Assembly (NCBI GenBank): GCA_965213625.1
Contig: CBDBZU010000004.1
Location: 1,568,001-1,632,000, forward strand
Direction: 5' to 3'
From: a bacterium
GTDB taxonomy: Bacteria > UBA8248
Length of the DNA stretch: 64,000 nucleotides
Shown: piece after piece, positions 41,425-64,000 of the stretch
Numbering within the stretch: position 1 is the first letter of the stretch
Layout of the letters: every line of letters begins with the position of its first letter
Program-made: the position numbers and the translations under genes
Notes under the pieces: model-generated
Told to the model about the DNA's origin: nothing
Database searches by the model: none
Seen by the model: only the letters and a program-made list of their open reading frames with translations

Positions 41425-41670
41425 ATGAACGAGGCCGTCTCCTTCATCGGAACTCACGAGCGCACGCTCTCAGACCTTGTGGACGATGGGCTGGACGTCC
41501 CCGAAGAGGCCGCGCTGCTCGTCTACCGCGATCTTTCGCGCGAAATAAGCGTGAAACTCATCTTCCCGAATATCGAATCCGCCCGCGCCCGCGCCGACGC
41601 CCTCATCAGGTTGAAGAGAGCCCGCCGCTGCGACTTGTCCGTCACCCCGCTCAGAGAGGCGCTTTGCTGA
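41425..41670 (+). CDS. Hypothetical protein, translationally coupled to the next gene
   Basis: GGAGG RBS; TGATG stop/start overlap at 41668-41672. Confidence 0.65.
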   Translation: MNEAVSFIGTHERTLSDLVDDGLDVPEEAALLVYRDLSREISVKLIFPNIESARARADALIRLKRARRCDLSVTPLREALC

Positions 41671-42059
41671 TGCCGTCCGAAAAGACCTGCCGAAAGACGA
41701 CTACGAGCAAGCGGCGTAAGAGAAGCACCAAGCAGGCCGCGCCGGACCCCAGAACCCCGCGCCGCATCCTCGAGGAAGAGGCCTTTCTCACCAAACCCAT
41801 GCTTGCCAAGGTGCTCGGCTACAAGAGCTACCGCACGCTCGACGCCATCATCGCCGAAGACTGCGCGAGCGACACGCCCTGCCTCCGGCCCGTCTACCTG
41901 CGCCGCCCGCCACCGCGCGCGGGCGCCAGGCAGCCCGAGAACCACCCCTCCTTCAAGAGCGCGCGCTTCCGCCGCGAGGACGTACTTGCCTACGTCGAGA
42001 AGATGACGGAAGATTTCCCGCTCGATCTGGAATGGAAATTCGGCGGCATGCGGGAGTAG
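41670..42059 (+). CDS. Xis/MerR-like helix-turn-helix DNA-binding protein
   Basis: FLTKPMLAKVLGYKSYRTL...RFRREDVLAYVE resembles the excisionase-type wHTH pattern; basic N-terminal tail. Confidence 0.6.
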   Translation: MPSEKTCRKTTTSKRRKRSTKQAAPDPRTPRRILEEEAFLTKPMLAKVLGYKSYRTLDAIIAEDCASDTPCLRPVYLRRPPPRAGARQPENHPSFKSARFRREDVLAYVEKMTEDFPLDLEWKFGGMRE

Positions 42060-42266
42060 TCAATCCCGACTGATCAAGGAGGGATTGCGACCGTGCTGGA
42101 GGAGGTTGGTTTAACAATCCTTTACATCTCATATTCGGATTGTATGAGGATGAGGTTGAGATTTGTTCGGAAATAGGTATATTTGGCGAACGTTTAACCA
42201 CTCAAACGAGTTGCCAGGGGACCCGAATTAGTTGGCGGATGGTTGAGTCCGTAAGAGGGTTCTTAA

Positions 42267-42875
42267 TTGGCGAGAGAATTTTCCAAGGCATTCGATTTCA
42301 ATCTTAAATTCGAGCGCAGGTTCACGGTTCATATTGGCGTGGTTGCCTTTATCTTCGTCGGTGTGATCGTAGGTGTCTATTTCTTCTTGCCTGCTCATAA
42401 GGAGTTGGCGACGTTTATCGCTATTGCCGTTGGCGCCGCAGCTGCGATCGTCAGCGCTTTTTATATTGCTCAAAGCGTTTATGCGAATGTGGAATCCGAG
42501 CAAATGACCCGCACGATGTCCCTTACCTCTGAGTGGAACACCGCAAGTTTTTTCGACTCGAAAAAAGCCGTCATCGGGCTAATCAAACCCATAGCCGCCA
42601 AACCGAGAGAGGAGAGGCTGAGAATTATACAAGAGAAAATCAGAGGTGATGAAATTCTCGAATTGAACATAACGAATGTTTTGAATTATCTCGAAGACTT
42701 GGCGGTGTTGGTAGATAAAGGCTTTGTCAATGAGGACATCATCCGCGAACTGTTCCAGACAAATGTTTTACGCTATTTTGACGTATTCGAGCCGTGGATT
42801 GCAGACCTGAGAAACCGCAGGGGCAACCGTCTTTACAGAGGTCTTGAATATCTATGCCGGAAATGGGATACTTGA
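42267..42875 (+). CDS. Membrane-anchored hypothetical protein (DUF4760-like), lower GC
   Basis: Two N-terminal TM segments; VLNYLEDLAVLVDKGFVNEDII...LEYLCRKW. Confidence 0.65.
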   Translation: MAREFSKAFDFNLKFERRFTVHIGVVAFIFVGVIVGVYFFLPAHKELATFIAIAVGAAAAIVSAFYIAQSVYANVESEQMTRTMSLTSEWNTASFFDSKKAVIGLIKPIAAKPREERLRIIQEKIRGDEILELNITNVLNYLEDLAVLVDKGFVNEDIIRELFQTNVLRYFDVFEPWIADLRNRRGNRLYRGLEYLCRKWDT

Positions 42876-42982
42876 AACACTTAGGTGATTTTGTAATTAC
42901 CTGGCCGCTGAAAGGAGACCAAACGATGCTCCACACACACGACGAGGACCCCGGCTTCTAGCAAAGAAGACCGATATGAATT

Positions 42983-43017
42983 AAAGCCCCTCGGTAAACC
43001 CGGGGGGCTTTTCTTTT
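42983..43017. terminator. Probable bidirectional terminator
   Basis: AAAGCCCCTCGG...CCGGGGGGCTTTT hairpin between convergent genes. Confidence 0.7.
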
Positions 43018-43098
43018 GGCGAATCCGCAATCTCTTCTTTCTTGGCCGCAATCCCTCCCTCGTCACTCACAATCCCTCCCTCCCTGGTCGGGATTGAC

Positions 43099-43950
43099 CT
43101 ACCGCACCCCGCCCAGCCACGCTTCCTTCCATTGCCAGGCGGGTTTTCCCGTTTCTTTTTGTATCGCGGCCGCCGCGTCCTTGGCGGCGTAGACGCGCAT
43201 GAACTTCTTCACCCCCCACTCGCGCAGGAGATAGGCCACATAAGACCCCGCGAGAATGTAGAACATGCGCCGCACGGCCCTGTTCTCGAATCTGGGGATT
43301 CCGTTCTCGCCAACGAGGTCGAGCGCTTTCGTCGCGGGCGGGAACTCGCGCCTCAGAACCCGGCCCGCGAACTCATCCACCGATTCCCCGAAATTGGGAA
43401 AGGCGGCGTAGCCGCCCAGGCGGTCGTTCAGGTGAACGGCCAGGCCTTCCTTGAGCCAGAGCGTGTTCCAGTCCCACGCGATGATGTGAACCGTCTCGTG
43501 CAGATAGGGCGTTCTCCTCCCTTTTGCGAAAGAGAGGAACACCACCGGGTGCATGTATTTTCGCGGGCTGTAGGCCGTGATGGTGTGTGAGGGCGCGCGC
43601 CGGCTGTGGACGAAGAACTCGATTTTCTCCTGTCCGTAGGCCTCGCTTGAGAACGGAAGCCCAAGAAACTTCTCGGCGGCCTCGACCCCGGCGTCAATCT
43701 TTTGGTGCAGATCGCTCGCCTCATCAGCCGAGAGATAACCCGCCTCCACCCAGAGAATGGAGCGCGCGGAGACGCGTGTTTCTGCATTTTCCTTGATCGA
43801 GCGCATGAGACCGATGTCGCGGCAGCGCCCCGTGTAGGGGCCATAGGTGCATTCTCTGGCGTCCGCGCGAGGGATACTTACTGAACTGAGTAACAAAGCG
43901 GCGATGAAGAACAATTGGATGGGAAGATTTCTTGTGCGTCTTTTCGGCAT
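43099..43950 (-). CDS. Exported putative zinc metallopeptidase (gluzincin-like)
   Basis: Signal peptide; HETVH (HExxH) followed by WLKEGLA. Confidence 0.7.
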   Translation of the reverse strand: MPKRRTRNLPIQLFFIAALLLSSVSIPRADARECTYGPYTGRCRDIGLMRSIKENAETRVSARSILWVEAGYLSADEASDLHQKIDAGVEAAEKFLGLPFSSEAYGQEKIEFFVHSRRAPSHTITAYSPRKYMHPVVFLSFAKGRRTPYLHETVHIIAWDWNTLWLKEGLAVHLNDRLGGYAAFPNFGESVDEFAGRVLRREFPPATKALDLVGENGIPRFENRAVRRMFYILAGSYVAYLLREWGVKKFMRVYAAKDAAAAIQKETGKPAWQWKEAWLGGVR

Positions 43951-44037
43951 GGCGCGACCCCCTGTGTTGTACGGCGGCGATGATGTTGCAAAGACGCAAG
44001 GAAAAAGCGGTAAGGGGGGTGCGAACCGCGCTTGCGT

Positions 44038-45126: not shown

Positions 45127-45178
45127 CGCAGTTGCCCGCATTTTCCGTCATCGTTCTCACGCTAGCAAGACATAAACT
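45127..45178 (+). promoter_or_regulatory. Putative activator-dependent late promoter 1 (lysis cassette)
   Basis: CGCAGTTGCCCGCATTT (45127-43), 29 nt, TAAACT (45173-78). Confidence 0.7.
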
Positions 45179-45246: not shown

Positions 45247-45396
45247 ATGTCTGAGAAAAATGATTTTGAAAAAAGAACGGACGCCGTGCTGTCGCGCTGG
45301 GCGAAGGGAAAACACACCCTCTTGCGCCTGGTCGCCGTGGGCGCATTTCTCGTGAGTCTGGGTTTTTTCGTGGGGGGTTATGTATGGCGGCCGTAA
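45247..45396 (+). CDS. 49-aa single-TM protein leading the lysis cassette
   Basis: Below the ORF-track cutoff; GAGGAG RBS; MSEKNDFEKRTDAVLSRWAKGKHTLLRLVAVGAFLVSLGFFVGGYVWRP; overlaps the next gene. Confidence 0.65.
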   Translation: MSEKNDFEKRTDAVLSRWAKGKHTLLRLVAVGAFLVSLGFFVGGYVWRP

Positions 45397-45620
45397 AGAA
45401 CGCGAAGTATCGCCCCGTCGAGATTTTCCGGGATAAATCCGGGCGGCATCGCTTCCGCGTGCGGGCGAGGAACGGAAGAATTCTGGCGTCGAGCCAGGCC
45501 TACGCGCGCCGCTCGGGTGCGCGCAAGGGCGCTGCGGCGCTCCTGCGTCTGCTTAAAGAAGCGGGCGGGATAGGGAACCTGTTTGAAGGGGAGGGCAGGG
45601 GATGCTCGCTGACGAGTTAA
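45384..45620 (+). CDS. YegP/DUF1508-like protein
   Basis: EIFRDKSGRHRFRVRARNGRILASSQAY. Confidence 0.75.
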   Translation: MAAVKNAKYRPVEIFRDKSGRHRFRVRARNGRILASSQAYARRSGARKGAAALLRLLKEAGGIGNLFEGEGRGCSLTS

Positions 45621-46015
45621 TAGAGGAAATCAAGCGCGAGGAGGGTTTCATGCCGGTAGTGTATATGGATAGCAAGGGAAAGAAGACCATCGGCTACGGT
45701 ACGCTGCTCGAAGACGGGATATCGCAAGCCGAAGCAGAGATGCTTCTTCGCCATCGCCTGGGCCTGATGGCCGGTGAACTCGAGCGCTCCTCTGTCGGCG
45801 TGGTCTTCGCGGGTCTCAAGCCAGGCGCCAAGCGCGCGGTTCTGAACATGGCCTACAACATGGGCGTGCCGAGTCTTCTGGGCTTCAGGAAAATGTGGGC
45901 CGCGCTCGCGAATGGCGATTATGCGCGCGCGGCTGAGGAGGCGCTCGATTCCGATTACGCGAGGGAACTCCCCGCGCGAGCGGGCCGGGTGGCCGAGAGC
46001 ATGAGGAGCGCGTGA
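45602..46015 (+). CDS. Phage-type lysozyme/endolysin (GH24, T4-like)
   Basis: EEGFMPVVYMDSKGKKTIGYG has E/D/T at T4 lysozyme spacing; NMAYNMG...F.KM...A.EALDS.YA...P.RA.R. Confidence 0.9.
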   Translation: MLADELIEEIKREEGFMPVVYMDSKGKKTIGYGTLLEDGISQAEAEMLLRHRLGLMAGELERSSVGVVFAGLKPGAKRAVLNMAYNMGVPSLLGFRKMWAALANGDYARAAEEALDSDYARELPARAGRVAESMRSA

Positions 46016-46437
46016 TGGCCTTTTTGGAAAAACTCATCGGCGGCGGCGTCATCACGGCGGCGGAGGGCGTCGCCAACGTCATCGACAAATTCGTCGAAAC
46101 GCCGGATGAGCGGCGCGCGGCCGAGGCGATAAAGCAGAAGCTGATGATGCGGCCCTTTGAGGCCCAGAACGAGATCAACAAGATAGAGGCCGCCCACCGC
46201 AGCGCCTTCGTCGCGGGCGGCAGGCCGTTCATCCTGTGGACCTGCGGCGTCTCGCTCGCCTTTTATTTCATCCCCCAGTATGCGCTCGGCGCATGGCTCT
46301 GGACGCGGCAGGTGCTGATGAGCGGCGATCTCGTGCCCTATCCCGTCTCGGCGGATGGGCTTCTCGAACTCACGCTCGGGATGCTGGGTCTGGGCGCGCT
46401 TCGCACCGTCGAGAAGCTCACGGGCAAGGCGCGGTGA
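46012..46437 (+). CDS. Holin of the 3TM type
   Basis: QNEINKIEAAHRSAFVAGGRPFILW...GMLGLGALRTVEKLTG; overlaps the lysozyme stop. Confidence 0.85.
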   Translation: MMAFLEKLIGGGVITAAEGVANVIDKFVETPDERRAAEAIKQKLMMRPFEAQNEINKIEAAHRSAFVAGGRPFILWTCGVSLAFYFIPQYALGAWLWTRQVLMSGDLVPYPVSADGLLELTLGMLGLGALRTVEKLTGKAR

Positions 46438-46464: not shown

Positions 46465-46681
46465 TGAAAAAGCCCCGCGGGTCGGGCCGAACCACTCCCC
46501 CTTGAGGGGGTTGTTGAAAAACCTCACAAAAGGAGCGCGGTGGATTTCACTCCCCCTCAAGGGGGGAGTGGTTATTGAGCGCTCTACAAGAGAAGAACGG
46601 TTTGGCCCGACCCGTAAGGATTTTTTCAACAATCCCTTGTCAGGGGGGTAGCAGCGACGCTCCTCGGCGAGGGCTTTTTCA
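46465..46681. repeat. Composite nested inverted-repeat element (MITE/REP-like)
   Basis: IR pairs 46465-75/46671-81 and 46478-93/46599-614, CACTCCCCCTTGAGGGGG pair, GTTGTTGAAAAA/TTTTTCAACAA; related sequence at 52972 and 58183-58504. Confidence 0.7.
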
Positions 46682-46700
46682 TCGGGCATTCCCCCGACCC

Positions 46701-47105
46701 TCACGGGCCGCTTTTTCTTTTTGTGGGTTTCGTCTCGATGTGCTCCAGGGGATGGTCGTGCACGATCTTGATCTGCTCGGGGAGGATAAAGGCGGCGGTG
46801 AACAGTACGACGGCGCCCAGGCAGGTGACGAGCAGCCCCGGCAATATCACTTTGAAGCCCGTGAATTCGGCCCCCGCGCTCTCGCGCGCCTCGGCGCGCG
46901 ACTGCTGGGTGATGAAGGCGCCCATCGCCAGGATGATGCCGCCCACGATGGCGGTCGAGATTCTCAGGAGGTTTTTCTCCTCCGCCAGGTAGGCGAAGAG
47001 CAGGATTTCCTCCTCCCCGTGGCCTGAGGCCGGCGCGTCTGGCAATCCCAGGAACCATAGCGAGAGCATGGCGAATGCGGTGGTAGTCGGCGCGCGAAAG
47101 CGCAT
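46701..47105 (-). CDS. Hypothetical membrane protein
   Basis: AAGGAGG RBS before ATG 47105; signal-like N-terminus plus two TM segments. Confidence 0.65.
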   Translation of the reverse strand: MRFRAPTTTAFAMLSLWFLGLPDAPASGHGEEEILLFAYLAEEKNLLRISTAIVGGIILAMGAFITQQSRAEARESAGAEFTGFKVILPGLLVTCLGAVVLFTAAFILPEQIKIVHDHPLEHIETKPTKRKSGP

Positions 47106-47165
47106 CAAACGTCCTCCTTCCGGCCATTGTGCAGCGCGCAAGTCTTTTTCTCAACGGAAAGGCTC

Positions 47166-47217
47166 CGCATTTGCCCGCATTTGCCGCACACCCCCAACCC
47201 GCGCCGCCTTGTATGTT
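47166..47217 (+). promoter_or_regulatory. Putative activator-dependent late promoter 2 (gp26/gp27-like genes)
   Basis: CGCATTTGCCCGCATTT (47166-82), 29 nt, TATGTT (47212-17). Confidence 0.72.
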
Positions 47218-47363
47218 AGGGGAAATCTCCGCCGCGCGCGGGGGTGTTTGGCGTTTCGGAAAGAAAGTCATCGAGGAGGTGTTTCAGTGGGTGGAAGAAG
47301 TCTGGATTTCAGCGGGTGGCGTCCGGCGTGCCGGTATGAATGTCATCGAGGAGGTGCATTAAC

Positions 47364-47696
47364 GTGAACGAACTGGCGGCCCGCGTCCTGCGCGGCGACA
47401 TTTTGAAGACGCTGTATTACCAGGATGCCTTGCGCGCGGAATCGAGCGTGGGGAGTCTTCTCCTCTGGAGCGCGCTGCGCGAGGCGGGCCATCATGAAGA
47501 CGGCGCGCCCCTGGGCCGCGAGACGCTCGAGGCCTTCGTGGACGATCTGGCCGGGCGGGGTTTGGTGGAAAAGCGCACCCCGGGCGGGTTCGGCCGCCTG
47601 CTGACGGATTACGAGGCGCACCTTACGCGCAAGGGGCGCGGCTTGCTCGAAGGAGCCGTATCCGTCTCACCCGACATCCTCGTGGGGGATCTGTAA
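47364..47696 (+). CDS. Mu gp26-like winged-helix phage protein
   Basis: LRGDILKTL...DLAGRGLVE...AHLTRKGRGLLEG...PDI pattern; immediately upstream of the gp27-like gene; GAGGAGGTG RBS. Confidence 0.6.
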   Translation: MNELAARVLRGDILKTLYYQDALRAESSVGSLLLWSALREAGHHEDGAPLGRETLEAFVDDLAGRGLVEKRTPGGFGRLLTDYEAHLTRKGRGLLEGAVSVSPDILVGDL

Positions 47697-48268
47697 TGGA
47701 GAGGAGACGGGGCCGCAGATCGAAAGTAGTGGAATATGGCGCCGAGAAAATCGTCGATACCATGCTCGCCGAGGGGAAGACCTACCAGGAGGTGGCCGAG
47801 GCCTTCGAGAAGGAGACCGGGGAGAAGATAGCGCTCGGCTCCGTCGGGGCGCGCAACAACCGCCTGCTCGAGGGTATCCGCAAGACCAAGCGGGTGGAAG
47901 CCATGGTGGATGAGCTGATCGAGGAGGTCATGGCGTATGACGGCGAGGGCCGGGACCCGGGCGAGAAGGTGGCGGCGGCCGCCAGGCGGATGCTGATGAC
48001 CCAGGCGGTCGAGGCCGTCTCTCACATGGGGAAAGAATCCTTCGAGGGCCTCAAGCCCGAGAAACTGGCCCAGATGGTGAACGGGCTCGAGCGCAGCAGC
48101 ATCTCGGCCGAGAAGCTCAGGCTCCAGTACGAGGACGGCTTCGCCGCCGCCAAGATGGCTATCGTGAAGGAAGTGCGCGAGTCGTTCCGCGAGCATCCCG
48201 ATTTGATGGACCAGGTGTGCGAAATCGTCGAGGAGGCGACCCGAAAGCTCGAGGATCGGATCGAGTGA
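47696..48268 (+). CDS. Mu gp27/DUF3486-like putative small terminase subunit
   Basis: GRRSKV N-terminus, HTH-like GKTYQEVAEAF...IALGSVG, helical 190 aa; TAATG coupling to the upstream gene. Confidence 0.65.
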   Translation: MERRRGRRSKVVEYGAEKIVDTMLAEGKTYQEVAEAFEKETGEKIALGSVGARNNRLLEGIRKTKRVEAMVDELIEEVMAYDGEGRDPGEKVAAAARRMLMTQAVEAVSHMGKESFEGLKPEKLAQMVNGLERSSISAEKLRLQYEDGFAAAKMAIVKEVRESFREHPDLMDQVCEIVEEATRKLEDRIE

Positions 48269-48411
48269 TGGGGGGAGGAGGCAAGATTCGGGCTGGTTGA
48301 AATTTCAGTGATCTATGGCAAGATATGAAGAATCATTGCACCCTATGAGATAGGGTGTGGCTGTGTGATATATTTCTTGCACAAGTTCAGCTAACCGCAA
48401 AGGAGGGTGAC

Positions 48412-48876
48412 ATGAGCACGTTTCCGTTCTTTTTTACCTTTGTGGACAAGGTGGAAGGAAACGGCTTCGTAGCGGATATAAGAATGCTGGGAACGCTCCT
48501 CGGGATGAAAGAGGACGATTCCACATGGATGTACGGCGTACAACCGGGTGGAATCGCCGCGACTGGACAAAACGAGGATGAGGCATTCTCCATCTTCCGG
48601 CGAACCTACACGTCCGTCCTGTTCGACATGGCGGAGGATGCCGACGATTTCACGACCTTCAAACAGCGAGTGGAGGTTTTCTTCAAAGAAATCTGTGAAG
48701 AGACGAAACAAGAATGGGATGAAGCCGTTGAAGCGGTGCGCCGGGGAGATATTGAAGCCGAAGGACTGGAAAAGAAAAACGCAGATAAGCACCAGCCCTA
48801 TGTGCAAGTAAGATCCGTCAAAAAACCCAAGGCGGGGCGCAACATGCTGGATGAACCAAGAGCCATCGCCGCCTGA
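48412..48876 (+). CDS. HicB-like antitoxin
   Basis: QPGGIAATGQNEDEAF resembles the HicB N-domain; adjacent to a HicA-like gene; AAGGAGG RBS. Confidence 0.5.
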   Translation: MSTFPFFFTFVDKVEGNGFVADIRMLGTLLGMKEDDSTWMYGVQPGGIAATGQNEDEAFSIFRRTYTSVLFDMAEDADDFTTFKQRVEVFFKEICEETKQEWDEAVEAVRRGDIEAEGLEKKNADKHQPYVQVRSVKKPKAGRNMLDEPRAIAA

Positions 48877-49131
48877 ATGGCTTCAAGCGGTCGCGTACAA
48901 CTAAGAAAAATATGGAATATGCTCAAAAGATGCGCGCCAGGATGCGTTGTCACGGAAAAGACGCATCACTATTGGATTCAATTTGAAGGCCGTACCTATC
49001 CTTCATTCCCAAAGGGAGCGCATGGGAAGGGAATTCGGGCGGAAATTGAAGTTGGCCATATCAGGAAGATGATTCGGCACCTACATATCGACATAGACTG
49101 TGCGAGGAATGAATTGCCGGAAGTGTATTGA
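48877..49131 (+). CDS. HicA-like toxin
   Basis: 84 aa, basic; KTHHYW...PSFPKGAHGK...EIEVGHIRKMIRHL. Confidence 0.55.
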   Translation: MASSGRVQLRKIWNMLKRCAPGCVVTEKTHHYWIQFEGRTYPSFPKGAHGKGIRAEIEVGHIRKMIRHLHIDIDCARNELPEVY

Positions 49132-51122: not shown

Positions 51123-51147
51123 TTTCAATAAACACGAGAGGTGCGCG

Positions 51148-53056: not shown

Positions 53057-53213
53057 AGCAGGAAGTACTCACCGCCGCCACGTTTCTTCGGCCCATCTCC
53101 GCCGGTCTCCTTTCTTGACGCGCCGAAGCCTGTGTGTGAGAATTTTCCCATCACCACATTTCAAAGAATACGATTGCACACTGGGCCATAGATCTAACCG
53201 GGGAGGAAAGTCT

Positions 53214-54164: not shown

Positions 54165-54245
54165 GAGATCAAACGCGGCGCCGCGCGGCGGAGGCGGGGG
54201 AAATGATCCCTGTCTCTGCGCGCGTCCTCGCCTGAGGGGACGGAC

Positions 54246-55451
54246 ATGCCCATTCCACGCGACGTGCTCCAGGCCGAAATCGACAGGCGGTTGGCGAACA
54301 CCCGGCGGCTGATGGCGGAGCGCGATTACGACGCCTTGATCGTTTACGGGAACAACAAGCTCTCCGGCAGCCTGCGCTATCTCACCGATTACTTTCCCGA
54401 CCGTGCGGGGTGGATCAGCTTGACGACCACAGAGACCGCCATCGTCGACGGGGGCGCGGCCTTCATCACGCAGGATGATGTTCCCGCGCTCATGGTCGAT
54501 CCGGGCCTCATGCCGACGCGCGAGGTGTGCGTCCCGCGCATCGTGGCCGGGGAGGGGTTCTCGGCGAAAAAGGGCGACGGCCTTTCCGTCGAGAACATCG
54601 AAAAACTCATCCGAGACACCGGCGACGTGAAGCGCGTCGGTATCGAGACGTTCGACAAGTTCCCCGCACCTCTTTACGCCGGGATGCGGGAGACGTTCCC
54701 GGACCTCGAAATCGTGCGCTCGACCATCGTCGAGGAACTCCGGATGGTGAAGAGCGATTTCGATCTCGAGATGATGCGAAAGGCAGGCCGGGTCGCGGAT
54801 TTGGGCCATGAGACCGTCGCCGGCATCCTGAGTACGGAGGGCGTCGGCAAAACGGAGCTCGAAATCATCCGCGCCGCCGAACACGCGATGCGCTCCGCCG
54901 ACCCGATTTACGAGGATTCGTGCAGCAGCTCACCGAGCCTCATCTGCAGCGGCTACCCGGTGGCGGGCGCGCTGTTGCACATGCCGAATCCGGCCAAGGC
55001 CATCGAGCGCGGCAACGTCGTGCACTGGGACATCTGCATGCGGTTCGAGGGCTACCCGGTCGACTCCTCGCGCACGCGCGCCATGGGGCCGGTGACGGAG
55101 GTCCACCGGCGCGCTTATGAGACCATTCTGGAAATTCAGCGAACGGTCATCGAGGAGGCGAAGCCGGGCGTCTTAGCGAGCAAACTCGTCGACACGGCCG
55201 AGGCGATGGCCCGCGACGCCGGTTTCGATTTGTGGGACAGGTTCTTGGGCCACGGCCTGGGATGGGACATCCACGAGCGCCCCGACATGGGCATCGAGAA
55301 ACTCCCCCTCGAGGAGAACATGGTGCTCGCCGTCGAGCCGCGCATCGCTGTCGACAACACCTATCTGTTCGGCAACGAGGACATGGTGCACGTCACGAAA
55401 GAGGGCGGCGTCTCCTTTACGTCTTTCCCGAGGGAGCCGCTGGAGATATAG
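54246..55451 (+). CDS. M24 family metallopeptidase/amidohydrolase
   Basis: LRMVKS, WDICM...DSSRT, GHGLGWDIHERP, VEP, NED. Confidence 0.9.
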   Translation: MPIPRDVLQAEIDRRLANTRRLMAERDYDALIVYGNNKLSGSLRYLTDYFPDRAGWISLTTTETAIVDGGAAFITQDDVPALMVDPGLMPTREVCVPRIVAGEGFSAKKGDGLSVENIEKLIRDTGDVKRVGIETFDKFPAPLYAGMRETFPDLEIVRSTIVEELRMVKSDFDLEMMRKAGRVADLGHETVAGILSTEGVGKTELEIIRAAEHAMRSADPIYEDSCSSSPSLICSGYPVAGALLHMPNPAKAIERGNVVHWDICMRFEGYPVDSSRTRAMGPVTEVHRRAYETILEIQRTVIEEAKPGVLASKLVDTAEAMARDAGFDLWDRFLGHGLGWDIHERPDMGIEKLPLEENMVLAVEPRIAVDNTYLFGNEDMVHVTKEGGVSFTSFPREPLEI

Positions 55452-55559
55452 CGGCGCGCGCGCGGAGGATGTTCGCGCCCAAGGCCGTGGCGGTCGCGGC
55501 CGCCATTTGCGCCGCCCGAACCTCCCACTGGCCCGATTTTCCAACTGGAAGACTCGTCC

Positions 55560-57146: not shown

Positions 57147-57171
57147 GGTGGTTCGGTAAGGGAGGGGAGCA

Positions 57172-58179
57172 ATGAGCGGCGAAGGAAAGGCGGACAGCGG
57201 GCGAGGCGCCGCCGCAAAGAGCGGGGGATACAGTGTCTACTCCCTCATCGCGTCCGGTTTTTCCAAGTACGGCCTCATCCTCGCGCTCATCTTGTTGGTC
57301 GTCTTTCTCTCCATCACGGCGGAGAACTTCTTCACCGTCTCGAACATGATGAACATCCTGCTCCAGTCGTCTAACATCGGCATCATGGCGGCGGGTCTCA
57401 CGCTGGTCATCATCTGTGCCGAGATCGACCTCTCGGTGGCCTCCATCCAGTCGATGGGCGCGGTCGTCGTCGCCCTTCTGCTCAAGGAATACGGTGTGCC
57501 CATCGTTCCGGCGGTGATCGCCACGCTGATTCTTGGGGTGCTCCTGGGCGGTGTGAGCGGGGTGTTCGTGGGCTGGTTCGCGATTCCCGCCTTCATCCTC
57601 ACGCTGGCGATGGACAGCCTCGCGCGCGGGGGCGCGCTCATCCTGACGGGTGAGCAGTCCATCTTCGGCCTGCCCGAGGCGTTCAGCGTGGTGGGGCAGG
57701 GCTACCTGGGTCCGTTCCCCATGGCCGCCGTCATCATGGGCGTCGTCTTCCTGGCCGCGCACCTCATCCTCTCGCGCACCGTCCTGGGCACGAACATCTA
57801 CGCCGTCGGCGGCAACAAGGAGGCCGCCCGCGTCGCTGGCGTGAACGTCTTCGCCGTCAAGCTGTTCGTGCTCGTCTTCAGCGGCTTCTGCGGCGCGCTG
57901 GCGGGCGTGGTGATGGCTTCGCGCCTCATGGCCGCCCAGGCCATCATGGGCATGTTCGACCTCATGGACGTCATCGCCGCGGTCGTCATCGGCGGCGCCT
58001 CGCTGCTGGGCGGTGAGGGGCGCATCATCGGCACCGTCATCGGCACGCTCATCATCGCGTGCATCAGAAATGGCCTGAACCTCCTGGGTATAGCCGCCGA
58101 TTGGCAGTTGCTGGCGGTCGGGGGGATCATCATCCTCGCCGTCCTGCTCGACTACGTGGGGAAAAAGCGCACGGCTTGA
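57172..58179 (+). CDS. Sugar ABC transporter permease (RbsC-like)
   Basis: IDLSV, YAVGGNKEAARVAG, IAAVVIGGASL. Confidence 0.93.
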   Translation: MSGEGKADSGRGAAAKSGGYSVYSLIASGFSKYGLILALILLVVFLSITAENFFTVSNMMNILLQSSNIGIMAAGLTLVIICAEIDLSVASIQSMGAVVVALLLKEYGVPIVPAVIATLILGVLLGGVSGVFVGWFAIPAFILTLAMDSLARGGALILTGEQSIFGLPEAFSVVGQGYLGPFPMAAVIMGVVFLAAHLILSRTVLGTNIYAVGGNKEAARVAGVNVFAVKLFVLVFSGFCGALAGVVMASRLMAAQAIMGMFDLMDVIAAVVIGGASLLGGEGRIIGTVIGTLIIACIRNGLNLLGIAADWQLLAVGGIIILAVLLDYVGKKRTA

Positions 58180-58182
58180 GAC

Positions 58183-58504
58183 GGTTGTTGAAAAAGTCCT
58201 CGTCGGGGGACATTGCCTTTAGCGGGAAGGCCGCTTTCGCGCGAACCCCCGACCTCCCATGTCGGAAGCAACCCCCCCTACCCCCCCCTTGTCAGGGGTC
58301 AAACGCGAGTGAGGAACGAGCGTTTGCATAAGCCATTGACGAGAAACACATCGGCTCGCAAAACCTCCCTCTTCGGTCGGTTTTGACCCTGACAAGGGGG
58401 GGTAGGGGGGGGTGGGTTTCCAGTGGAGAGGTGCGTCCCCTCCATCCCTTGAAAAGGGTATTTTTTCAACAACTCCTTGTCAGGGGGGCTTCTTCAACAA
58501 CCCC
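58183..58504. repeat. Composite inverted-repeat element (MITE/REP-like)
   Basis: GGTTGTTGAAAAA...TTTTTCAACAAC ends; internal CCCCCTACCCCCCCTTGTCAGGG inverted pair; 58461-88 matches 46621-48 at 26/28. Confidence 0.7.
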
Positions 58505-58652
58505 GCGTAGGGCGGCCTTCAGGAGCGTCCTTGCGCGCCGAGGAGCGCTGGCCGCCGCCCGCATTTAGGGGTGGATATCCCCCCCGTTTTTGGCTTTTCC
58601 TCACGAGCCGCTGGTGTATACTGGCCTCTGGAACCGCCGCCGGAGGCGTGAG

Positions 58653-60506
58653 ATGTCCGAATCCAGCAATCCCGAGCCGAGCACCCAGGAGAAGCAGGGG
58701 TTTTACTGCTCCATCGTTTTCAAGAGCCTCATTCTCGTCCTGATCATTCTCATCGTCGCCATCGTTCCGATGTCCTACCGCTACTATCAGTCGAGCTACA
58801 ATTACGAGCTCAACGTGCTCTCGGCCAGGCTCGAGTTCATTGCCGAGCGCGGTTCCGCCTTGATTGATGCGGAAGCCGTTCACAGCCTGCGGCTGCCGAG
58901 CGACAAGAATACCCCCGAATACAGGGAGGTGCTCGCCGCGCTCAGGCGCATCAAGCGGAACTCGGGCGTGGACAACGCCATTATCATGCGCAGACGCGCC
59001 GATGGAAGCTACGGATACGTCGCCGCCGCGCACGACGGGTTCCAAATCGGCCAGGACGCCCATATCCACAAGCTCTTCCCGGCCACCTACAAGGCCACGA
59101 ACGACACCTGGAACAAGGGCGAGATGATGCGCTCCCGGCTCTTCGGCGGAAAGGTGGGGGACCGCGAGTTCGACAAGTTCTTGCAACTCAACACGCCGCT
59201 CAAGCTGAACGGCAAGGTGGTGGCCATCCTGGTGCTCAACAAGATTGCGAACCCCGTTGCCGAGCAGGTGGCGACGAACACCTTCAAGCTGCTGCGCTTC
59301 ACCATCATCCTGGTCGCCCTTGGCCTCATCCTCTTCTGGCTCATCTCCTCACGGATGCTGCGCCTGATCAGGAACCTAACGAGCGCGGCGGAAGAGGTGA
59401 GCCAGGGGAATCTCGACGTCACGGTTCCCGCTAAGAGGAGCCACGACGAGGTGGGCCGCCTGGCCACTTCGTTCGAGGGCATGATCGATGGCCTGAAACA
59501 GCGCGATTTTATCCGCGACACATTCGGACGCTACATCAGCAAGGAGATCGTGGACGAACTCCTGAACTCGCCCGATGGCCTCAAGCTCGGCGGCGAGGTG
59601 CGCGAGGTGACTTTCCTGGTCTCGGACTTGCGGGGGTTCACCGCGCTCTCCTCTCGCCTTGAGCCGCACGAGGTCATCGAGGTCGTGAACCGTTTCCTGG
59701 AGCCGATGGTGGACATCATCACCAGACACCGGGGCACGGTGGATGAGTTCCAGGGCGACGGTATTCTCGCGTTCTTCGGCGCGCCGCTCGCCGAGCCCGA
59801 CGACTCGGCCCGGGCCGTGGCCTGCGCCGTGGAGATGCAGCGCGCCCTCGTCGAAATCAACGAGGAGCAGCGCAAGCGCGGCATGCCCGATCTTCACATG
59901 GGGATCGCCATCAACACGGGCGAGGTGATCGTCGGCAACATCGGTTCGGAAAAACGCACCAAGTACGGCGCGATGGGCACGGCCATCAACATGGCCTACC
60001 GCATCGAGTCCTACACCGTGAGCGGGCAGGTGCTCATCAGTATGGATACGTATCAGAAAATGGCGGAATTCGTTCAGGTGGGCGATACCCAGGATCTGCG
60101 CTTCAAGGGGCTGGGTGAGCCGGTTCGCGTCTACGAGGTGCGGGGGATGTCGGGGCCTTATGCGTGTGAGATGCCCGAGGCCGCGCCCGAGGTGTTCGTG
60201 GACCTCGCTGCACCGGTCGAGGTGCGGATGTTCGCGGTCGAGGGGAAGACGGTGTCGGACGAAGCCGTGCGCGCCGGGGTCGAGCGTGCTTCCGAGAATT
60301 GTCTGGACGTGGAGGCGGATGCTCCCTTTGAGAGGAACGCGAATCTCATGCTGCGGATGGCGGAAGAAACGGAAGTTTCAGACGTCTACGCGAAGGTCGT
60401 CGAGGCGGACGGGGCGAGATTGATGCTGCGCTTTACCTCCCTGCCCGATGACGCCAAGGCGTATTTCGAAAAGGTCAGGGCATCAGCCGCGCAATCGAGC
60501 ACGTAG
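58653..60506 (+). CDS. Membrane-bound class III nucleotide cyclase (TM-sensor-TM-HAMP-cyclase-PilZ-like), possibly guanylate cyclase
   Basis: HAMP DEVGRLATSF; VSDLRGFT, DEFQGDG, KYGAMGTAINMAYRIES. Confidence 0.88.
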   Translation: MSESSNPEPSTQEKQGFYCSIVFKSLILVLIILIVAIVPMSYRYYQSSYNYELNVLSARLEFIAERGSALIDAEAVHSLRLPSDKNTPEYREVLAALRRIKRNSGVDNAIIMRRRADGSYGYVAAAHDGFQIGQDAHIHKLFPATYKATNDTWNKGEMMRSRLFGGKVGDREFDKFLQLNTPLKLNGKVVAILVLNKIANPVAEQVATNTFKLLRFTIILVALGLILFWLISSRMLRLIRNLTSAAEEVSQGNLDVTVPAKRSHDEVGRLATSFEGMIDGLKQRDFIRDTFGRYISKEIVDELLNSPDGLKLGGEVREVTFLVSDLRGFTALSSRLEPHEVIEVVNRFLEPMVDIITRHRGTVDEFQGDGILAFFGAPLAEPDDSARAVACAVEMQRALVEINEEQRKRGMPDLHMGIAINTGEVIVGNIGSEKRTKYGAMGTAINMAYRIESYTVSGQVLISMDTYQKMAEFVQVGDTQDLRFKGLGEPVRVYEVRGMSGPYACEMPEAAPEVFVDLAAPVEVRMFAVEGKTVSDEAVRAGVERASENCLDVEADAPFERNANLMLRMAEETEVSDVYAKVVEADGARLMLRFTSLPDDAKAYFEKVRASAAQSST

Positions 60507-60595
60507 GGTATTCTCGCTTCACACCGAATAGGGGTTTTGAACGAGTCCTGATTCCGTGATTTGGCGTATGGAGCCGACCGGGGAGGGGGTTCTTC

Positions 60596-60806
60596 GTAGT
60601 GACAGCCCCTCCACGGGGCTGTCACGCAGGTCACGACCTGTCCCTACAAGAGGCAGTGCGGTTTTGTTCGTCATTCCGGCGAAAGCCGGAATCCATTTTG
60701 ACTTTGTTTTTATTTTCTGATTGTTTCCCGCTAATGATGGGGAGACGCAAAGCCGGTGTATTGTCATTCTGCTTTAGAATAGATTCCGGCTTTCGCCGGA
60801 ATGACG
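60596..60806. repeat. Cluster of GTAG-type (60596-60647) and CGTC-type (60669-95, 60782-806) palindromic repeats
   Basis: Direct sequence matches to repeats at 10460, 15046, 18897 and 15173-15646. Confidence 0.8.
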
Positions 60807-60879
60807 GTGGTGGGCAATTGCGGCCGGGGAGAGTTCTTCAACAACCTCGAATAAAAGAGGCTGCGCATTCGCGTGAACG

Positions 60880-60912
60880 AAAAACCCCGGGGACGCATCC
60901 CCGGGGTCTTTT
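60880..60912 (-). terminator. Terminator of amt (possibly bidirectional)
   Basis: ACCCCGGGGA/TCCCCGGGGT stem with an A-tract on the left (U-tract on the minus strand). Confidence 0.8.
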
Positions 60913-60922
60913 CCTGTACGGC

Positions 60923-62206
60923 CTAGCGTTCGTAGGCCGATTCGTTGTGCATCATGAGGTCGAGACCGCCGGATTCCTCGTTGGCGTCGGCTCTCAGGCC
61001 CACCATGGCGTCCACGATTTTGAGCAGGATGAAGGAGACGACGCCCGAATAGACGAGCGTGGCGATGACGCTCACGAACTGGATCCAGAGCTGTCTGCCC
61101 ATGCCGACGCCCTCGGCGAAGCCGACGCCGCCGAATCCCTCGGCGACGAATACGCCGGTCAGTATCGCGCCGATGATCCCGCCGACGCCGTGCACGGTGA
61201 ACACGTCGAGAGAGTCGTCCACCTTGAGCACCTGTTTCATGTAGTTGGTGGCGGCGAAGCAGCCAAGGCCCGCTATTGCGCCGAGCAGCAGCGCACCCAT
61301 CGGCCCCACGAAGCCCGAAGCAGGCGTTATGCCGACGAGGCCCGCCACCATGCCGGTAACGATGCCGAGCACACTCGCTTTGCCGTGCTTGATCCACTCC
61401 GCGAACATCCATGCGAGAGCGCCCGCCGCCGAGGAGATGTGCGTCACGAGCATGGCCATGCCCGCCGCGCCGTCGGCCGCAAGCGCGCTGCCGGCGTTAA
61501 AGCCGAACCAGCCGACCCACAGGATGCCCGCGCCCGTCACCGCCATGGGCAGGTTATGGGGCAGCATGGCCGTGTTGGGAAATCCGTGCCTCGGTCCGAT
61601 CAGGAGGGCGGCCACAAGAGCAGCGACGCCGGAGTTGATGTGCACCACCGTGCCGCCCGCGAAATCGAGCGCGCCCATCTCGCCGAGCCATCCGCCGCCC
61701 CACACCCAGTGGGCCACCGGCGCGTAGACGAGGATCACCCAGGCGATGGAGAAGATGAACATGGCCGAGAACCGCATCCGTTCGGCGAAGCTGCCCACGA
61801 TCAGCGCGGGCGTGATGATGGCGAATGTGAGCTGGAACATGGCGAAGACCGTCTCGGGAATGTTGCCCGAGAGCGATTCCACGCCCACGCCTGCGAAGAA
61901 CGCCTTGCCCAGTCCGCCGATGAAGGCGTTGCCGGCTTCGAACACCAGGCTGTAGCCGACGATGAGCCAGACGATGGACACGGCGCAAGCGATGGAGAAG
62001 CACTGCATCAGCACCGAGAGCACGTTTTTCGCGCGCACGAGACCACCGTAGAATAGCGATAGGCCCGGAAGCGTCATGAACAGGACGAGGGCGGTCGACG
62101 TCAGTATCCAGGCGGTGTTCCCGGTATCGAGTTTATCGGCCGCGAATGCGACCCCCGGGGCCAGTGTAAGCGCCGTGGCCCAAAGGACCAACACAAAGCG
62201 TTTCAT
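60923..62206 (-). CDS. amtB: Ammonium transporter
   Basis: FQLTFAIIT, HWVWGGGW, DFAGGTVVH, WFGFNAGS, DDSLDVFTVHG. Confidence 0.95.
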   Translation of the reverse strand: MKRFVLVLWATALTLAPGVAFAADKLDTGNTAWILTSTALVLFMTLPGLSLFYGGLVRAKNVLSVLMQCFSIACAVSIVWLIVGYSLVFEAGNAFIGGLGKAFFAGVGVESLSGNIPETVFAMFQLTFAIITPALIVGSFAERMRFSAMFIFSIAWVILVYAPVAHWVWGGGWLGEMGALDFAGGTVVHINSGVAALVAALLIGPRHGFPNTAMLPHNLPMAVTGAGILWVGWFGFNAGSALAADGAAGMAMLVTHISSAAGALAWMFAEWIKHGKASVLGIVTGMVAGLVGITPASGFVGPMGALLLGAIAGLGCFAATNYMKQVLKVDDSLDVFTVHGVGGIIGAILTGVFVAEGFGGVGFAEGVGMGRQLWIQFVSVIATLVYSGVVSFILLKIVDAMVGLRADANEESGGLDLMMHNESAYER

Positions 62207-62579
62207 CTTTTTGAACCTCCTTTAGAAGTTGGAACAATAATCCGAAAAGTGTTTTCCGCTCAGGTTTGAGGCGCCGTCTTCCGCCGCGTGGAGGGAAATT
62301 TAATCAATCCCGCCACGTCCCAGCGGTGTTCAACCGACGTCTTCGGGCTTGATTCTCGTCGTGATTCGACGCATAAACGTATCTCCTTGAGATGGTCTCG
62401 CGCCCCGGTGGGCGCCGAAACCAGCCATTGAGTCAAGGAAAATAGGGATTCCTTGCGGGGGAAACCCCCAATCGTCTCCAGAACAGTCCTGGGCGTTGGA
62501 AGAGCTATCCCCTACTATACCACCAGCAGCACCGGGTGTGTAGCGTGCGCCCGATTTCAAAAGGAGCTTTGCGGACGCC

Positions 62580-63065
62580 ATGCCTTCATTCGACATTGTT
62601 TCAAGGACGGATTTACAGGAAGTCGACAACGCGATCAATGGGGTGCGCCGGGAAATCGCCCAGCGCTTCGATTTCAAGGGGTCGAAATGCGCGCTCGATC
62701 GGAAAGATACGGAGGTCACCCTGCTGGCCGACGACGATTTCAAGCTCAGGCAGATGCACGATCTGGTGCATACCCATTTAACGAGACGTAAGGTGGATCT
62801 GCGCGCGCTCGACTTCAAAGACCCCGAATCCGCCGCAGGCGGCGCGCTCCGGCAGGCCATTCTCGTGAAGCAGGGCGTGGATCAGGATTCGGCGCGAGAG
62901 ATCGTCAAGAAGGTGAAGGCGACGAAGATGAAGGTGCAGGTCGCGATTCAAGGCGATCAGCTGAGAGTGAGCGGCAAGAAGCGCGACGACTTGCAGCAGG
63001 TGATATCCCTCTGCCGGGAGCTCGACCTCAAACTCGCGCTTCAATTCGAGAACATGCGCGATTAG
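62580..63065 (+). CDS. yajQ: YajQ family nucleotide-binding protein
   Basis: MPSFDIVS, QRFDFKG, RVSGKKRDDLQ, QFENMRD. Confidence 0.95.
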   Translation: MPSFDIVSRTDLQEVDNAINGVRREIAQRFDFKGSKCALDRKDTEVTLLADDDFKLRQMHDLVHTHLTRRKVDLRALDFKDPESAAGGALRQAILVKQGVDQDSAREIVKKVKATKMKVQVAIQGDQLRVSGKKRDDLQQVISLCRELDLKLALQFENMRD

Positions 63066-63075
63066 CGCCTGAGCG

Positions 63076-63127
63076 CGCATTTCCCCGCATTTGCGCGTCA
63101 TGGCTCACAGGCCCCATCCCCTATATT
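63076..63127 (+). promoter_or_regulatory. Putative activator-dependent late promoter 3 (large terminase)
   Basis: CGCATTTCCCCGCATTT (63076-92), 29 nt, TATATT (63122-27). Confidence 0.72.
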
Positions 63128-63178
63128 CCTCCTTCGTGAGGATGCGCGCGGCATCCTTGGACTGGAGGAGTTCCGGCT

Positions 63179-64000
63179 TTGCGCAAATCCCGGAAAATCA
63201 ATCGAGCGCCCGGCATGGCCCTTGCGGCCTGCGGGACCTCGCGTTTTTCGGGCGAGGCGCGTGGACTGGCCCGGTTTCTGACGAGCGAGATGTCGACCGA
63301 CTCGGGCGCTTTCACCCTCGAGGGCAGAGAGGCGTTTTCGGAGATCATCGCCGCGCTCGATGAAATCCTTGGAAAACGCACGCCCGATCAAACCATCAGT
63401 GTCCTGAAGGGCGCGCAGGTGGGCATGACCACCCTCGCCATCGGTTTTGCGCTCTACTGCGTCATCGTCCACCGCCTGAACGTGGGCTATTTTCTGCCCG
63501 ATCAGGATTTTGCGGATCGCTTCGATCAGACGCGCGTACGCCCGGCGCTCAGACACGAGAGAATCGCCTCAATCATGCGCGAGGGGAAATACAGGGGCGC
63601 ATCGCCTAAGGGCTTGAAGGAGTTCCCCGGCCGCGGGGGCTCGCGTTTTCTCTACATACTGGGTCTCAAGGACATCGGCAACGCCATATCCATCCCGCTC
63701 GACGTGCTTGTCCGCGACGAGGTGGACGACTTGCCCGCGGACAACCTCAAGTGGTCGAACGACCGCATCGACGCCTCACCCCTCGCCCTGACGCTCAACC
63801 TCGCCGTCGGCAGAACCCCGGGTGCTGGCATTCACGCCATGTACGAGGCGGGTGACAAGAGGCGCTGGCATGTGAGGTGCCCGGCGTGTCATGTGGAGAT
63901 TGTCCTGGAGGAGAACTGGCCGAAAATCTTTAGCGGCGATGCGCTCGCCTGTCCGGCTTGCGGCGGCGCGCTCGAGCGGGGCGCGGGGCGGTGGGAGGCC
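63179..64000 (+). CDS. Phage terminase large subunit, GpA-type ATPase domain; runs off the window end
   Basis: Not in the ORF track; TTG 63179 after GGAGGAG. Hand translation gives VLKGAQVGMTT (Walker A variant), GYFLPDQDFADRF, LVRDEVD (Walker B), YEAGDKRRWHVRCPAC...CPACG...GRWEA; 274 codons without a stop. Confidence 0.85.
   Translation, partial: MRKSRKINRAPGMALAACGTSRFSGEARGLARFLTSEMSTDSGAFTLEGREAFSEIIAALDEILGKRTPDQTISVLKGAQVGMTTLAIGFALYCVIVHRLNVGYFLPDQDFADRFDQTRVRPALRHERIASIMREGKYRGASPKGLKEFPGRGGSRFLYILGLKDIGNAISIPLDVLVRDEVDDLPADNLKWSNDRIDASPLALTLNLAVGRTPGAGIHAMYEAGDKRRWHVRCPACHVEIVLEENWPKIFSGDALACPACGGALERGAGRWEA

Follow-up and report, generated by a model that had tools for sequence, protein, structure and literature searches.

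A putative gene transfer agent-like particle system dispersed among host genes in a lineage labelled Nitrospinota/Tectomicrobia

The window analyzed here, a 64,000-nucleotide (nt) stretch of a bacterial chromosome (GTDB lineage Bacteria; UBA8248; assembly GCA_965213625.1, contig CBDBZU010000004.1, hereafter C4, positions 1,568,001 to 1,632,000 of the forward strand), carries from position 41,425 onward a series of phage-type genes interleaved with host genes. Together with their continuation beyond the window, these genes probably constitute a domesticated phage particle system resembling gene transfer agents (GTAs), which would be a new and independent one in a lineage labelled Nitrospinota/Tectomicrobia. 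Judged from gene content, the system appears to have kept lysis genes, a small and a large terminase, portal, capsid fusion, connectors, tail tube, chaperone, a tape-measure-like gene, and tail-tip genes, whereas no replication, integration, or transposition genes were found among the scanned open reading frames (ORFs). The genes form five blocks, four of which are located within 39 kb and are split by host genes, and the fifth lies 2.26 Mb away. The source genome (G000; 4.15 Mb, 59% G+C, 96.6% complete, and 5.2% contaminated) was compared with 22 genomes of the same genus, each representing another species; these are kin, and counts among them are therefore non-independent. Synteny was mapped by placing the genes of the G000 region onto 80-kb stretches of four (G008, G013, G001, and G007) of the 20 genomes that carry the system. 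Window coordinates beyond 64000 are extrapolated (C4 coordinate minus 1568000).

The blocks are separated by genes of host type. Between the small and the large terminase, profile searches assigned the stretch 49374-63065 to two S15/CocE-like peptidases, a periplasmic binding protein, an M24 peptidase, an ABC ATPase, a permease, a HAMP-cyclase, AmtB, and DUF520/YajQ. A preliminary description of the window had placed host genes between the two terminases, and this part of it holds with one correction, as AmtB is encoded on the minus strand (60923-62206). Another 8 kb of host DNA separates portal and capsid and harbors a 398-aa (amino acid) gene of no known function, UGSC, two luciferase-like monooxygenases, a tadA-like deaminase, and cdaA. 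Portal, capsid fusion, connector, and tail tube genes, which the same description had suggested looking for past 64000, are present, and the possibility that the large terminase begins a separate complete prophage is excluded, as terminase and portal are followed by host genes and only then by capsid and tail genes. No integrase or transposase family was found among the ORFs scanned in the 40-81 kb region, in agreement with the earlier impression that none is visible. From 80.9 kb onward the region encodes F420-biosynthesis and other metabolic genes, and no further phage genes were found at 81-110 kb (extrapolated), where only metabolic genes occur. The interleaved order of blocks recurs in all four mapped relatives, including the host blocks with cdaA and the tadA-like deaminase, the only exception being that G007 is without the peptidase/ABC block.

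An active prophage with cargo genes, or an assembly artefact joining phage and host DNA, would explain the phage-like order and strand of the blocks, but either is extremely improbable. The gaps hold core genes (cdaA, the tadA-like deaminase, and amtB) that are syntenic in genomes without the phage genes, and the tail-tip genes are 2.26 Mb away. In the public sequencing run X1, which may be the source sample of the assembly, a single identical contig covers the whole 20 kb over the phage/host junctions at an even depth of 52, and the same layout occurs in four other, independently assembled genomes, three of which are listed as single contigs. The assembly is thus sound, and a misassembly is contradicted. 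Other runs contained related populations. Run X5, labelled as a viral metagenome, yielded short low-depth contigs of relatives from host and phage parts alike, a pattern that cannot tell particle-packaged host DNA from contamination by cells, and run X24 yielded one 187-nt piece. In run X6, the host block between portal and capsid was deep (130-190) and the phage genes were thin (L001:3336-13340; 90% likeness threshold); this population may, like G010, lack the phage blocks, or its phage genes may diverge faster than the 90% threshold allows.

The phage genes appear to have been inherited vertically under purifying selection. The capsid gene is present as a single intact copy in 20 of the 22 same-genus genomes at 77-91% identity, and a second genus of the family has one copy at 71% identity. 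Ratios of nonsynonymous to synonymous substitution rates (dN/dS; pairwise NG86 values from tblastn alignments) range from 0.05 to 0.46 for the family- or synteny-supported phage genes of both loci, and from 0.04 to 0.49 for adjacent host genes, while the synonymous divergence (dS) of the phage genes equals that of their host neighbors (0.3-0.5 against G008 and G013). A tree of 11 phage genes and a tree of 12 host genes have the same topology, with an internal branch of 0.164 and 0.163, respectively (all trees comprise 5-7 taxa). Synteny, congruence with the host tree, and dN/dS, which had been named as checks, all favor vertical inheritance under purifying selection, and the proposal of a module that was fixed in the chromosome, split up, and kept rather than left to decay is borne out. 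Several ORFs were discarded as wrong frames because their dN/dS approached or exceeded 1, namely 41143-41457 (minus), 46575-47027, 47068-47367, and 60599-62056 (plus), as was a 155-aa minus-strand ORF at the second locus; the value of the plus-strand ORF 60599-62056 is above 1, and it was rejected as a gene.

The two genomes of the genus that lack the system have lost all of it. G009 (99% complete) and G010 (95% complete) are without the capsid gene, two genes of the second locus (ORFs A and G), and the 81-aa and 118-aa ORFs described below. DNA comparison indicated that the flanking host genes are in place and that each phage block has been cut out: lysozyme and holin, the small terminase, both halves of the large terminase with the portal, and the genes from capsid to chaperone are deleted, and the entire second locus is gone between the M23 peptidase and cinA. 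G010 keeps a remnant of the portal, consisting of its last 26 codons. A host tree of seven markers places G010 with G000 and G013 (support 0.97-0.98) and G009, which is 75% identical to G010, on a separate deep branch. G010 is therefore nested among carriers, and five blocks each were lost in two independent events. Such joint loss would be expected if the blocks work only together. The dispersal among host genes, and the lack of replication and integration genes among those seen, could also be taken as signs of decaying remnants of one or several prophages without present function. This is very unlikely, however, because the ORFs are intact, their dN/dS is 0.05-0.46 down to about 75% protein identity, the promoter motif before the blocks is conserved, and all blocks were lost jointly in two unrelated lineages; remnants, by contrast, would erode one by one. 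Decay can for practical purposes be ruled out, as can an active prophage and an artefact.

All five blocks are preceded by the same promoter-like element. Alignments of the upstream regions identified a 16-bp motif, GCATTT[CG]CCCGCATTT, which contains a 6-bp direct repeat with a 10-bp period, and a -10-like hexamer is located exactly 29 nt downstream of the motif in each case. The sites, all on the plus strand, are found before the lysis block (45128..45178; one mismatch, 29 nt, TAAACT), the small terminase (47167..47217; perfect, 29 nt, TATGTT), the large terminase (63077..63127; perfect, 29 nt, TATATT), the capsid (74555-74606; perfect, TAGATT), and the second locus (C4:3893766; perfect, TATATT). 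Among the four relatives, 18 of 20 block-genome pairs have the motif at the orthologous place. These include 16/16 cases for the lysis, large-terminase, capsid, and second-locus blocks, with the lysis motif within two mismatches in 4/4 and the large-terminase motif perfect and about 100 nt upstream in 4/4; the small-terminase motif is present in G008 and G013 but in neither G001 nor G007, in which lysis and terminase genes form one contiguous stretch. Because the motif is positioned at about -57 to -42 and the -35 region is poor, the sites suggest activator-dependent promoters. The common control assumed in the preliminary description is thus supported by one motif at a fixed distance from the -10-like hexamer. 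A sigma-54 reading of TGGCAGAATTCCCCTGC was rejected, as the spacing from GG to GC is 12 nt (counted by hand), compared to the 10 nt of the sigma-54 consensus.

The motif is not restricted to the phage blocks. The G000 genome contains 21 perfect copies and 112 copies within two mismatches, and 66 of these 112 have nAnnnT at +29 (background 4%). The other carriers examined have similar networks: 24 perfect copies in G001 (none with the reversed pattern at zero mismatches), 33 perfect and 87 within two mismatches in G007 (reversed control 0), 89 within two mismatches in G008 (reversed control 10), and at least 33 perfect and 120 within two mismatches in G013 (reversed control 1). The genomes without the system have no perfect copies and, within two mismatches, only 10 (G009; reversed control 6) and 17 (G010; reversed control 5), of which one in G010 is at the former position of the terminase promoter. 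The network has therefore gone with the element, including in G010, which is nested among carriers. A candidate for the factor acting on the motif is an 81-aa ORF on the plus strand (41425..41670), present in 20 of the 22 genus genomes and missing only in G009 and G010; this exact match with the carriers makes it a candidate, although in G001 it is at another chromosomal place. Its dN/dS (0.31-0.52) includes the only values above those of the supported phage genes. The ORF had been called a helix-turn-helix gene; it is real and conserved, but a helix-turn-helix could not be demonstrated, as profile searches of Pfam, PHROG, and PDB returned no matches and an AlphaFold model (pLDDT 74.5; alignment of four sequences) had no Foldseek match at E ≤ 0.001.

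Many of the motif copies belong to larger modules. In each of eighteen type I units of G000, the motif is followed after 29 nt by TGGCAGAAT, then by a hairpin that shows compensatory changes, and finally by an AT-rich element about 70 nt long with the core AACCCCGTGAATTTATC. The AT-rich element has 47 copies in G000 (e.g., C4:783607 at locus L091, 3900722, and 1849930) and 46 in G008, and at most two each in G001, G009, G010, and G041. About five type II sites consist of arrays of up to six 10-bp repeats abutting the AT-rich element, an arrangement likened to iterons beside an unwinding region, and one such array directly follows the stop codon of ORF G at the second locus. These modules could conceivably be chromosome-wide launch sites for packaging initiation or local amplification, from which particles would load host DNA at defined places, but this is a tentative and rather doubtful suggestion. 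In that reading, the host would have spread the recognition sites of the phage over its chromosome, leading to site-seeded generalized transduction with a two-subunit terminase. A regular spacing of the sites, as for pac-headful packaging, is unsupported (coefficient of variation of the gaps 1.1, no strand bias). Co-oriented ORF starts occur within 700 nt of 31 of the 66 promoter-like sites, which is estimated to be about chance, and there is thus no evidence that the sites mainly drive protein genes. A role as tRNA promoter was rejected, as 0 of 41 sites are within 400 nt of the 47 tRNA/tmRNA genes, and 20 chosen of the 41 loose motif sites had no Rfam match at E ≤ 0.01; the AT-rich element likewise matched no Rfam family.

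Two 412-aa ORFs, identical in length and in their first 40 residues, were observed 278 nt past motif copies with two mismatches and CAGAAT at +29 (G000:C4:5392 and 190149, plus strand). An equal-scoring pair of ORFs located 4-5 kb upstream (C4:444-1625 and 185201-186382) matches two ORFs beside the phage-like element of a more distant genome, G032, which is described below. The paired regions suggest a repeat of several kb, possibly a mobile element.

The large terminase is encoded by two genes. The ATPase half (TerL-N; 352 aa, 63179..64237, plus strand, cut by the window end at 64000) matches PF05876 GpA_ATPase (E 1.1e-18) and positions 25-345 of the 576 of phrog_675 (E 9.3e-48), and the nuclease half (TerL-C; 64234-64881, plus strand) matches positions 360-550 of the same family (E 3.5e-11); dN/dS is 0.16-0.24 and 0.18-0.31, respectively. 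The terminase recognized in the preliminary description is therefore real, but it is of the lambda GpA type rather than the Mu type and is split into two ORFs. The TGA stop of TerL-N overlaps the ATG/GTG start of TerL-C (NTGA) in six of six genomes (G000, G008, G013, G001, G007, and L065), and the TerL-C start lies just ahead of the conserved FCGIDTGD strand. In the unsplit 552-aa homologue P0053, TerL-N aligns to residues 14-327 and TerL-C to residues 343-527, and the break is therefore in the inter-domain linker. Among 67 homologues from a collection of 5.8 billion proteins, the 52 with at least 52% identity are 194-408 aa long, while 14 of the 15 with at most 45% identity are 525-596 aa long, the exception being 307 aa at 32% identity. 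This pattern indicates that the split is a shared derived character of the clade with the dispersed system. Fused relatives occur only at ≤45% identity, and the enzyme is not a single-chain GpA protein. The nearest phage match to TerL-N is 27% identical, and no close phage relative of TerL-C was found; the G000 genome has a single GpA terminase.

The simplest reading of this arrangement is that the large terminase would be made as two subunits by translational coupling. A programmed -1 frameshift near the overlap, yielding one full-length terminase, would be compatible with a domesticated particle system, and the nuclease frame of G000 remains open over at least 28 codons ahead of its own start codon. 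Such a mechanism is nevertheless improbable, since stops interrupt the nuclease frame of G013 about 18 codons upstream, the overlap shows no conserved slippery heptamer, the start/TGA overlap in 6/6 genomes is the classical coupling arrangement, and gene callers across databases give proteins of 194-408 aa for the whole clade. The conserved natural split between ATPase and nuclease bears on how packaging motors tolerate the separation of motor and nuclease.

If the genes function as their families suggest, the five blocks, each with its own copy of the activator-type promoter, could be switched on by a single factor. On induction, the blocks would be co-transcribed and heads and tails would assemble, the two-piece terminase with its ATPase and nuclease subunits would fill the heads with DNA, and holin and endolysin would release the particles. 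A gene set spread over 2.3 Mb exceeds any head, and the particles therefore could not propagate the system; since they could not carry it, their DNA would be mostly host DNA, as in a GTA. A route for DNA uptake exists, as ComEC is present in the genome. Expression, particle production, packaging of host DNA, and transfer are in this case predicted from the genes and would follow if the modules are active as encoded.

The system may also be domesticated and functional but serve a purpose other than gene transfer, such as killing of competitors, timed lysis, or delivery of DNA or protein, or the factor of the motif network may itself be the selected part, with the particle genes dependent on it. 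This alternative is less probable, though it deserves serious consideration: the data on conservation, selection, and joint loss do not specify the contents or role of the particle, and a network of 112 sites within two mismatches, 66 of them promoter-like, that was lost with the element hints at a function beyond five operons. On the other hand, the small terminase, both terminase halves, and the portal are under purifying selection, and a tailocin-like killing particle would not need them; moreover, complete head, packaging, tail, and lysis modules are the pattern of a GTA. Several observations weigh against a GTA-like system. The network of about 100 sites far exceeds the need of five operons and may serve more than, or something other than, a classical GTA, and no motif copy lies near comEC. 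The match of ORF G to tape-measure proteins is modest (E 5e-8) and this gene is displaced relative to L060 and G024, the chaperone and ORFs A, B, D, E, and F are unrecognized or placed by position only, and no head-completion or receptor-binding protein was recognized in the phage blocks. In another genus (G041), the ATPase half has a frame break, and splitting might impair the terminase, an objection that the conservation of the split speaks against.

Among known GTAs, that of Rhodobacter capsulatus (RcGTA) represents a type that is phage-derived, vertically inherited, multi-locus, and coordinately regulated. The system of G000 resembles it in vertical inheritance, purifying selection, distribution over several loci, and the apparent coordinate control of a head, tail, packaging, and lysis set, and shares the holin family PF11351, which is named after GTA holins. 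It differs in its independent origin, its GpA-type and gp27-type terminases, the capsid fusion, a different host phylum, the split terminase, and a finer dispersal, with host genes between the small terminase, the large terminase with portal, and the capsid. Membership in the RcGTA family was rejected, as the genome has no match to PF13547 (GTA_TIM), for which the control matched in Caulobacter, and the capsid, terminase, and portal families differ. BaGTA of Bartonella has a run-off replication origin, a separate chromosomal DNA element that shapes which DNA is packaged, and the genes of VSH-1 of Brachyspira are split by host genes in some species. Both are independently domesticated GTAs, as is proposed here, and the BaGTA element is a possible analogue of the dispersed modules; however, no homology to either was seen, although no search was aimed at it, no replication initiator was found, and there are about 50-100 dispersed modules per genome rather than one.

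To our knowledge, about five independent GTA lineages are known, all of which were found by culture work. Titles and abstract openings of the literature on GTAs in Nitrospinota, Tectomicrobia, and sponge symbionts, and on split terminases, contained no description of such a system. If the GTA-like reading is true, it would represent one more independent domestication, involving a different kind of phage and an uncultured lineage and recognized from genomes alone. The evolutionary evidence is unusually clear, comprising conserved interleaving with core genes, co-divergence, and the joint loss of the blocks and the motif network, and the network of about 100 sites offers a concrete starting point for studying how a domesticated virus is controlled by its host, or controls it.

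The system appears to originate from a siphovirus with a gp27-type small terminase that was domesticated in the ancestor of the genus and passed on vertically from then on. Among phage records, the Microcystis phage Mae-JY22 (PP438414.1) is nearest; its portal is 40% and its capsid fusion 33% identical to those of G000, and two of its connectors match. It shares the late gene order of lysis genes, DUF3486 small terminase, large terminase, and portal to capsid and tail, and it encodes Gam. In contrast to the host-interrupted element of G000 with its split GpA-type terminase, Mae-JY22 is a compact 41-kb phage with early genes and a single 520-aa large terminase that has no match to the G000 terminase at E 1e-3. 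When the 61 Mae-JY22 proteins were searched against G000 with tblastn, portal, capsid, and two connector genes matched, and the other matches were located outside the element, namely a 98-aa ORF (18214-18510; seven places far from the blocks) and, weakly, a Dam-type methylase ORF (one place). The large early ORFs 12171-13946 and 14021-15358 had no tblastn match in G000, and of all early-region ORFs only the 98-aa ORF had any. With so few matches, the phage is too distant for the remaining genes to be mapped.

The derivation from a transposable phage assumed in the preliminary description stands in part. The gp27-type small terminase, and the combination of Gam and DUF3486 in Mae-JY22, are in its favor, while the GpA-type large terminase and the lack of any transposase among the ORFs scanned are not. 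The Mu transposase core PF02914 had no match in G000, although its control matched in 0 of 14 control genomes, which makes this a weak negative, and the Mor family (PF08765) had no match in the genome. Mu-like phages share the position of gp27 (DUF3486) beside the lysis genes but not the head type; PF10124 (Mu-like_gpT) scored 16.6 bits, under its cut-off of 20.1, and the capsid is of the Phage_capsid_4 family instead. The promoters likewise recall those of phages. The late promoters dependent on the activators C and Mor in Mu and on CII in lambda have a short repeat upstream of the -10 hexamer, a weak or absent -35 hexamer, and one copy per late operon, as here, and the G variant of the motif contains TTGC-N6-TTGC, the direct repeat of the lambda CII site. 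The G000 motif differs in that it sits one helical turn further upstream, that no Mor protein was found, and that about 100 sites are outside the phage genes.

The lysis genes, holin, and gp27-type small terminase named earlier were confirmed by profile searches. The endolysin, a phage lysozyme (45602..46015, plus), matches PF00959 (E 3.5e-11) and phrog_7 endolysin (E 6.4e-20) and is 66-85% identical in 4/4 relatives (dN/dS 0.17-0.24), and its start is overlapped by a 78-aa DUF1508 ORF (45384..45620, plus; PF07411, E 1.3e-9) that is found only in G008 and G013 among the four mapped relatives. The holin, of the GTA_holin_3TM family (46012..46437, plus), matches PF11351 (E 6e-12; 46.6 bits, cut-off 24.8; model positions 4-117 of 123) and phrog_3427 holin (E 2.4e-23), with dN/dS 0.05-0.21. 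The small terminase of the Mu gp27/DUF3486 type (47696..48268, plus) matches PF11985 (E 6.1e-7; 30.4 bits, cut-off 28) and phrog_426 (E 5.3e-10) and is present in 4/4 relatives (dN/dS 0.15-0.37). It is preceded, at the position of Mu gp26, by a 118-aa ORF (47340..47696, plus) that is present in 19 of the 22 genus genomes, is missing in G009, G010, and G001, and has dN/dS 0.07-0.20. The ORF is thus conserved, but as it has no family match in Pfam or PHROG, its earlier label "gp26-like" rests on position alone. Two small variable accessory ORFs (173 aa and 84 aa; 48355..49131, plus) have no family match and are present in G008 and G013 but not in G001 and G007; their homologues, 46-50% identical, end the compact element of G032.

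Between the holin and the small-terminase block there is a minus-strand 146-aa ORF (46701-47141) with no PHROG match. Although G009 and G010 have lost the phage genes on both sides, they retain the DNA of this ORF (72-74% identical); the ORF is probably a host gene by which the lysis-terminase operon was split in the clade of G000. At the left edge of the lysis block, a stretch of low G+C content (51-53% compared to 59%; window 41700-44000) contains the ORFs 42267-42875 (plus) and 43099-43950 (minus), and this region encodes a DUF4760 protein (PF15956, E 5.9e-24) and a 283-aa ORF of no assigned family. The DUF4760 gene is in none of the four mapped relatives and the 283-aa ORF only in G008, and the stretch looks like a strain-specific insertion.

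Downstream of the terminase, the portal (64878-66233, plus) matches phrog_10963 (E 3.1e-47) with dN/dS 0.10-0.21, and, after the 8-kb host block, the 692-aa capsid fusion (74704-76782, plus; start TTG at 74704) matches PF25209 (E 1.6e-44) and phrog_29592 (E 3.3e-130) with dN/dS 0.11-0.20. These are followed by four connector ORFs (76816-78959, plus; PF04883 and phrog_5 for 77912-78433), the tail tube (79033-80172, plus; PF18906, E 5.3e-12), and, at the chaperone position, two ORFs in overlapping frames (80215-80637 and 80471-80821, plus), both of which are conserved in L059 and L060. The second locus, 2.26 Mb from the main blocks, is a plus-strand operon of ORFs A-G (G000:C4:3893766-3900628) flanked by plsX, yceD, ppx, and an M23 peptidase on one side and cinA on the other; it is syntenic in the mapped relatives, with dN/dS 0.13-0.46. 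Its ORFs encode about 359 (A), 177 (B), 403 (C), about 317 (D), 231 (E), 160 (F, uncertain), and 564 aa (G). ORF C has a TipJ/Phage-tail_3 lead (Atlas score 0.95), and ORF G resembles tape-measure proteins in their C-terminal parts (phrog_1535, E 5.2e-8). ORFs A and G are each present in the same 20 of 22 genus genomes as the capsid, and ORFs A, B, and C are homologous to G032 ORFs located downstream of capsid and connector genes (G000 homologues at C4:3893639-3896733).

More distant relatives provide insight into how the dispersal arose. In L060 and G024, representing two other genera, G-like and A-like genes directly follow the chaperone, and the ancestral order was therefore contiguous. L065, from another genus (capsid 68%), has amt, the terminase halves, portal, monooxygenase, cdaA, and capsid in the order of G000, and cdaA is beside the capsid in L066 and L052. 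In G041 (L059, 68%), only a single 354-aa ORF separates the adjacent portal and capsid, and the ATPase half is about 11 kb upstream of the portal. In distant relatives from other phyla (32-42% identical), six of eight loci carry portal and capsid on one strand at a distance of 1.5-4 kb, like ordinary prophages. The differing layouts among genera indicate that host insertions accumulated stepwise and differently by lineage, and the differing places of insertion, with portal next to capsid in G041 but cdaA separating the two in L065 and genus g1, make the steps of dispersal traceable.

A compact relative was observed in G032, which belongs to another family of the same class and whose capsid is 38% identical (loci L035-L038, 44-68 kb of the reverse-complemented concatenate). 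Its element packs a terminase of another type (560 aa) together with portal, capsid, and tail genes into about 25 kb, and has high G+C content at third codon positions (GC3) with some low-GC3 inserts; it could be a prophage or a second domesticated element. In G000, the tail block is abutted by an F420 cluster on the minus strand (cofE, cofC, cofD, and FrhB/FdhB-like; C4:1648912-1653943, extrapolated 80912-85943), and several luciferase-like monooxygenases are encoded between and beyond the phage blocks.

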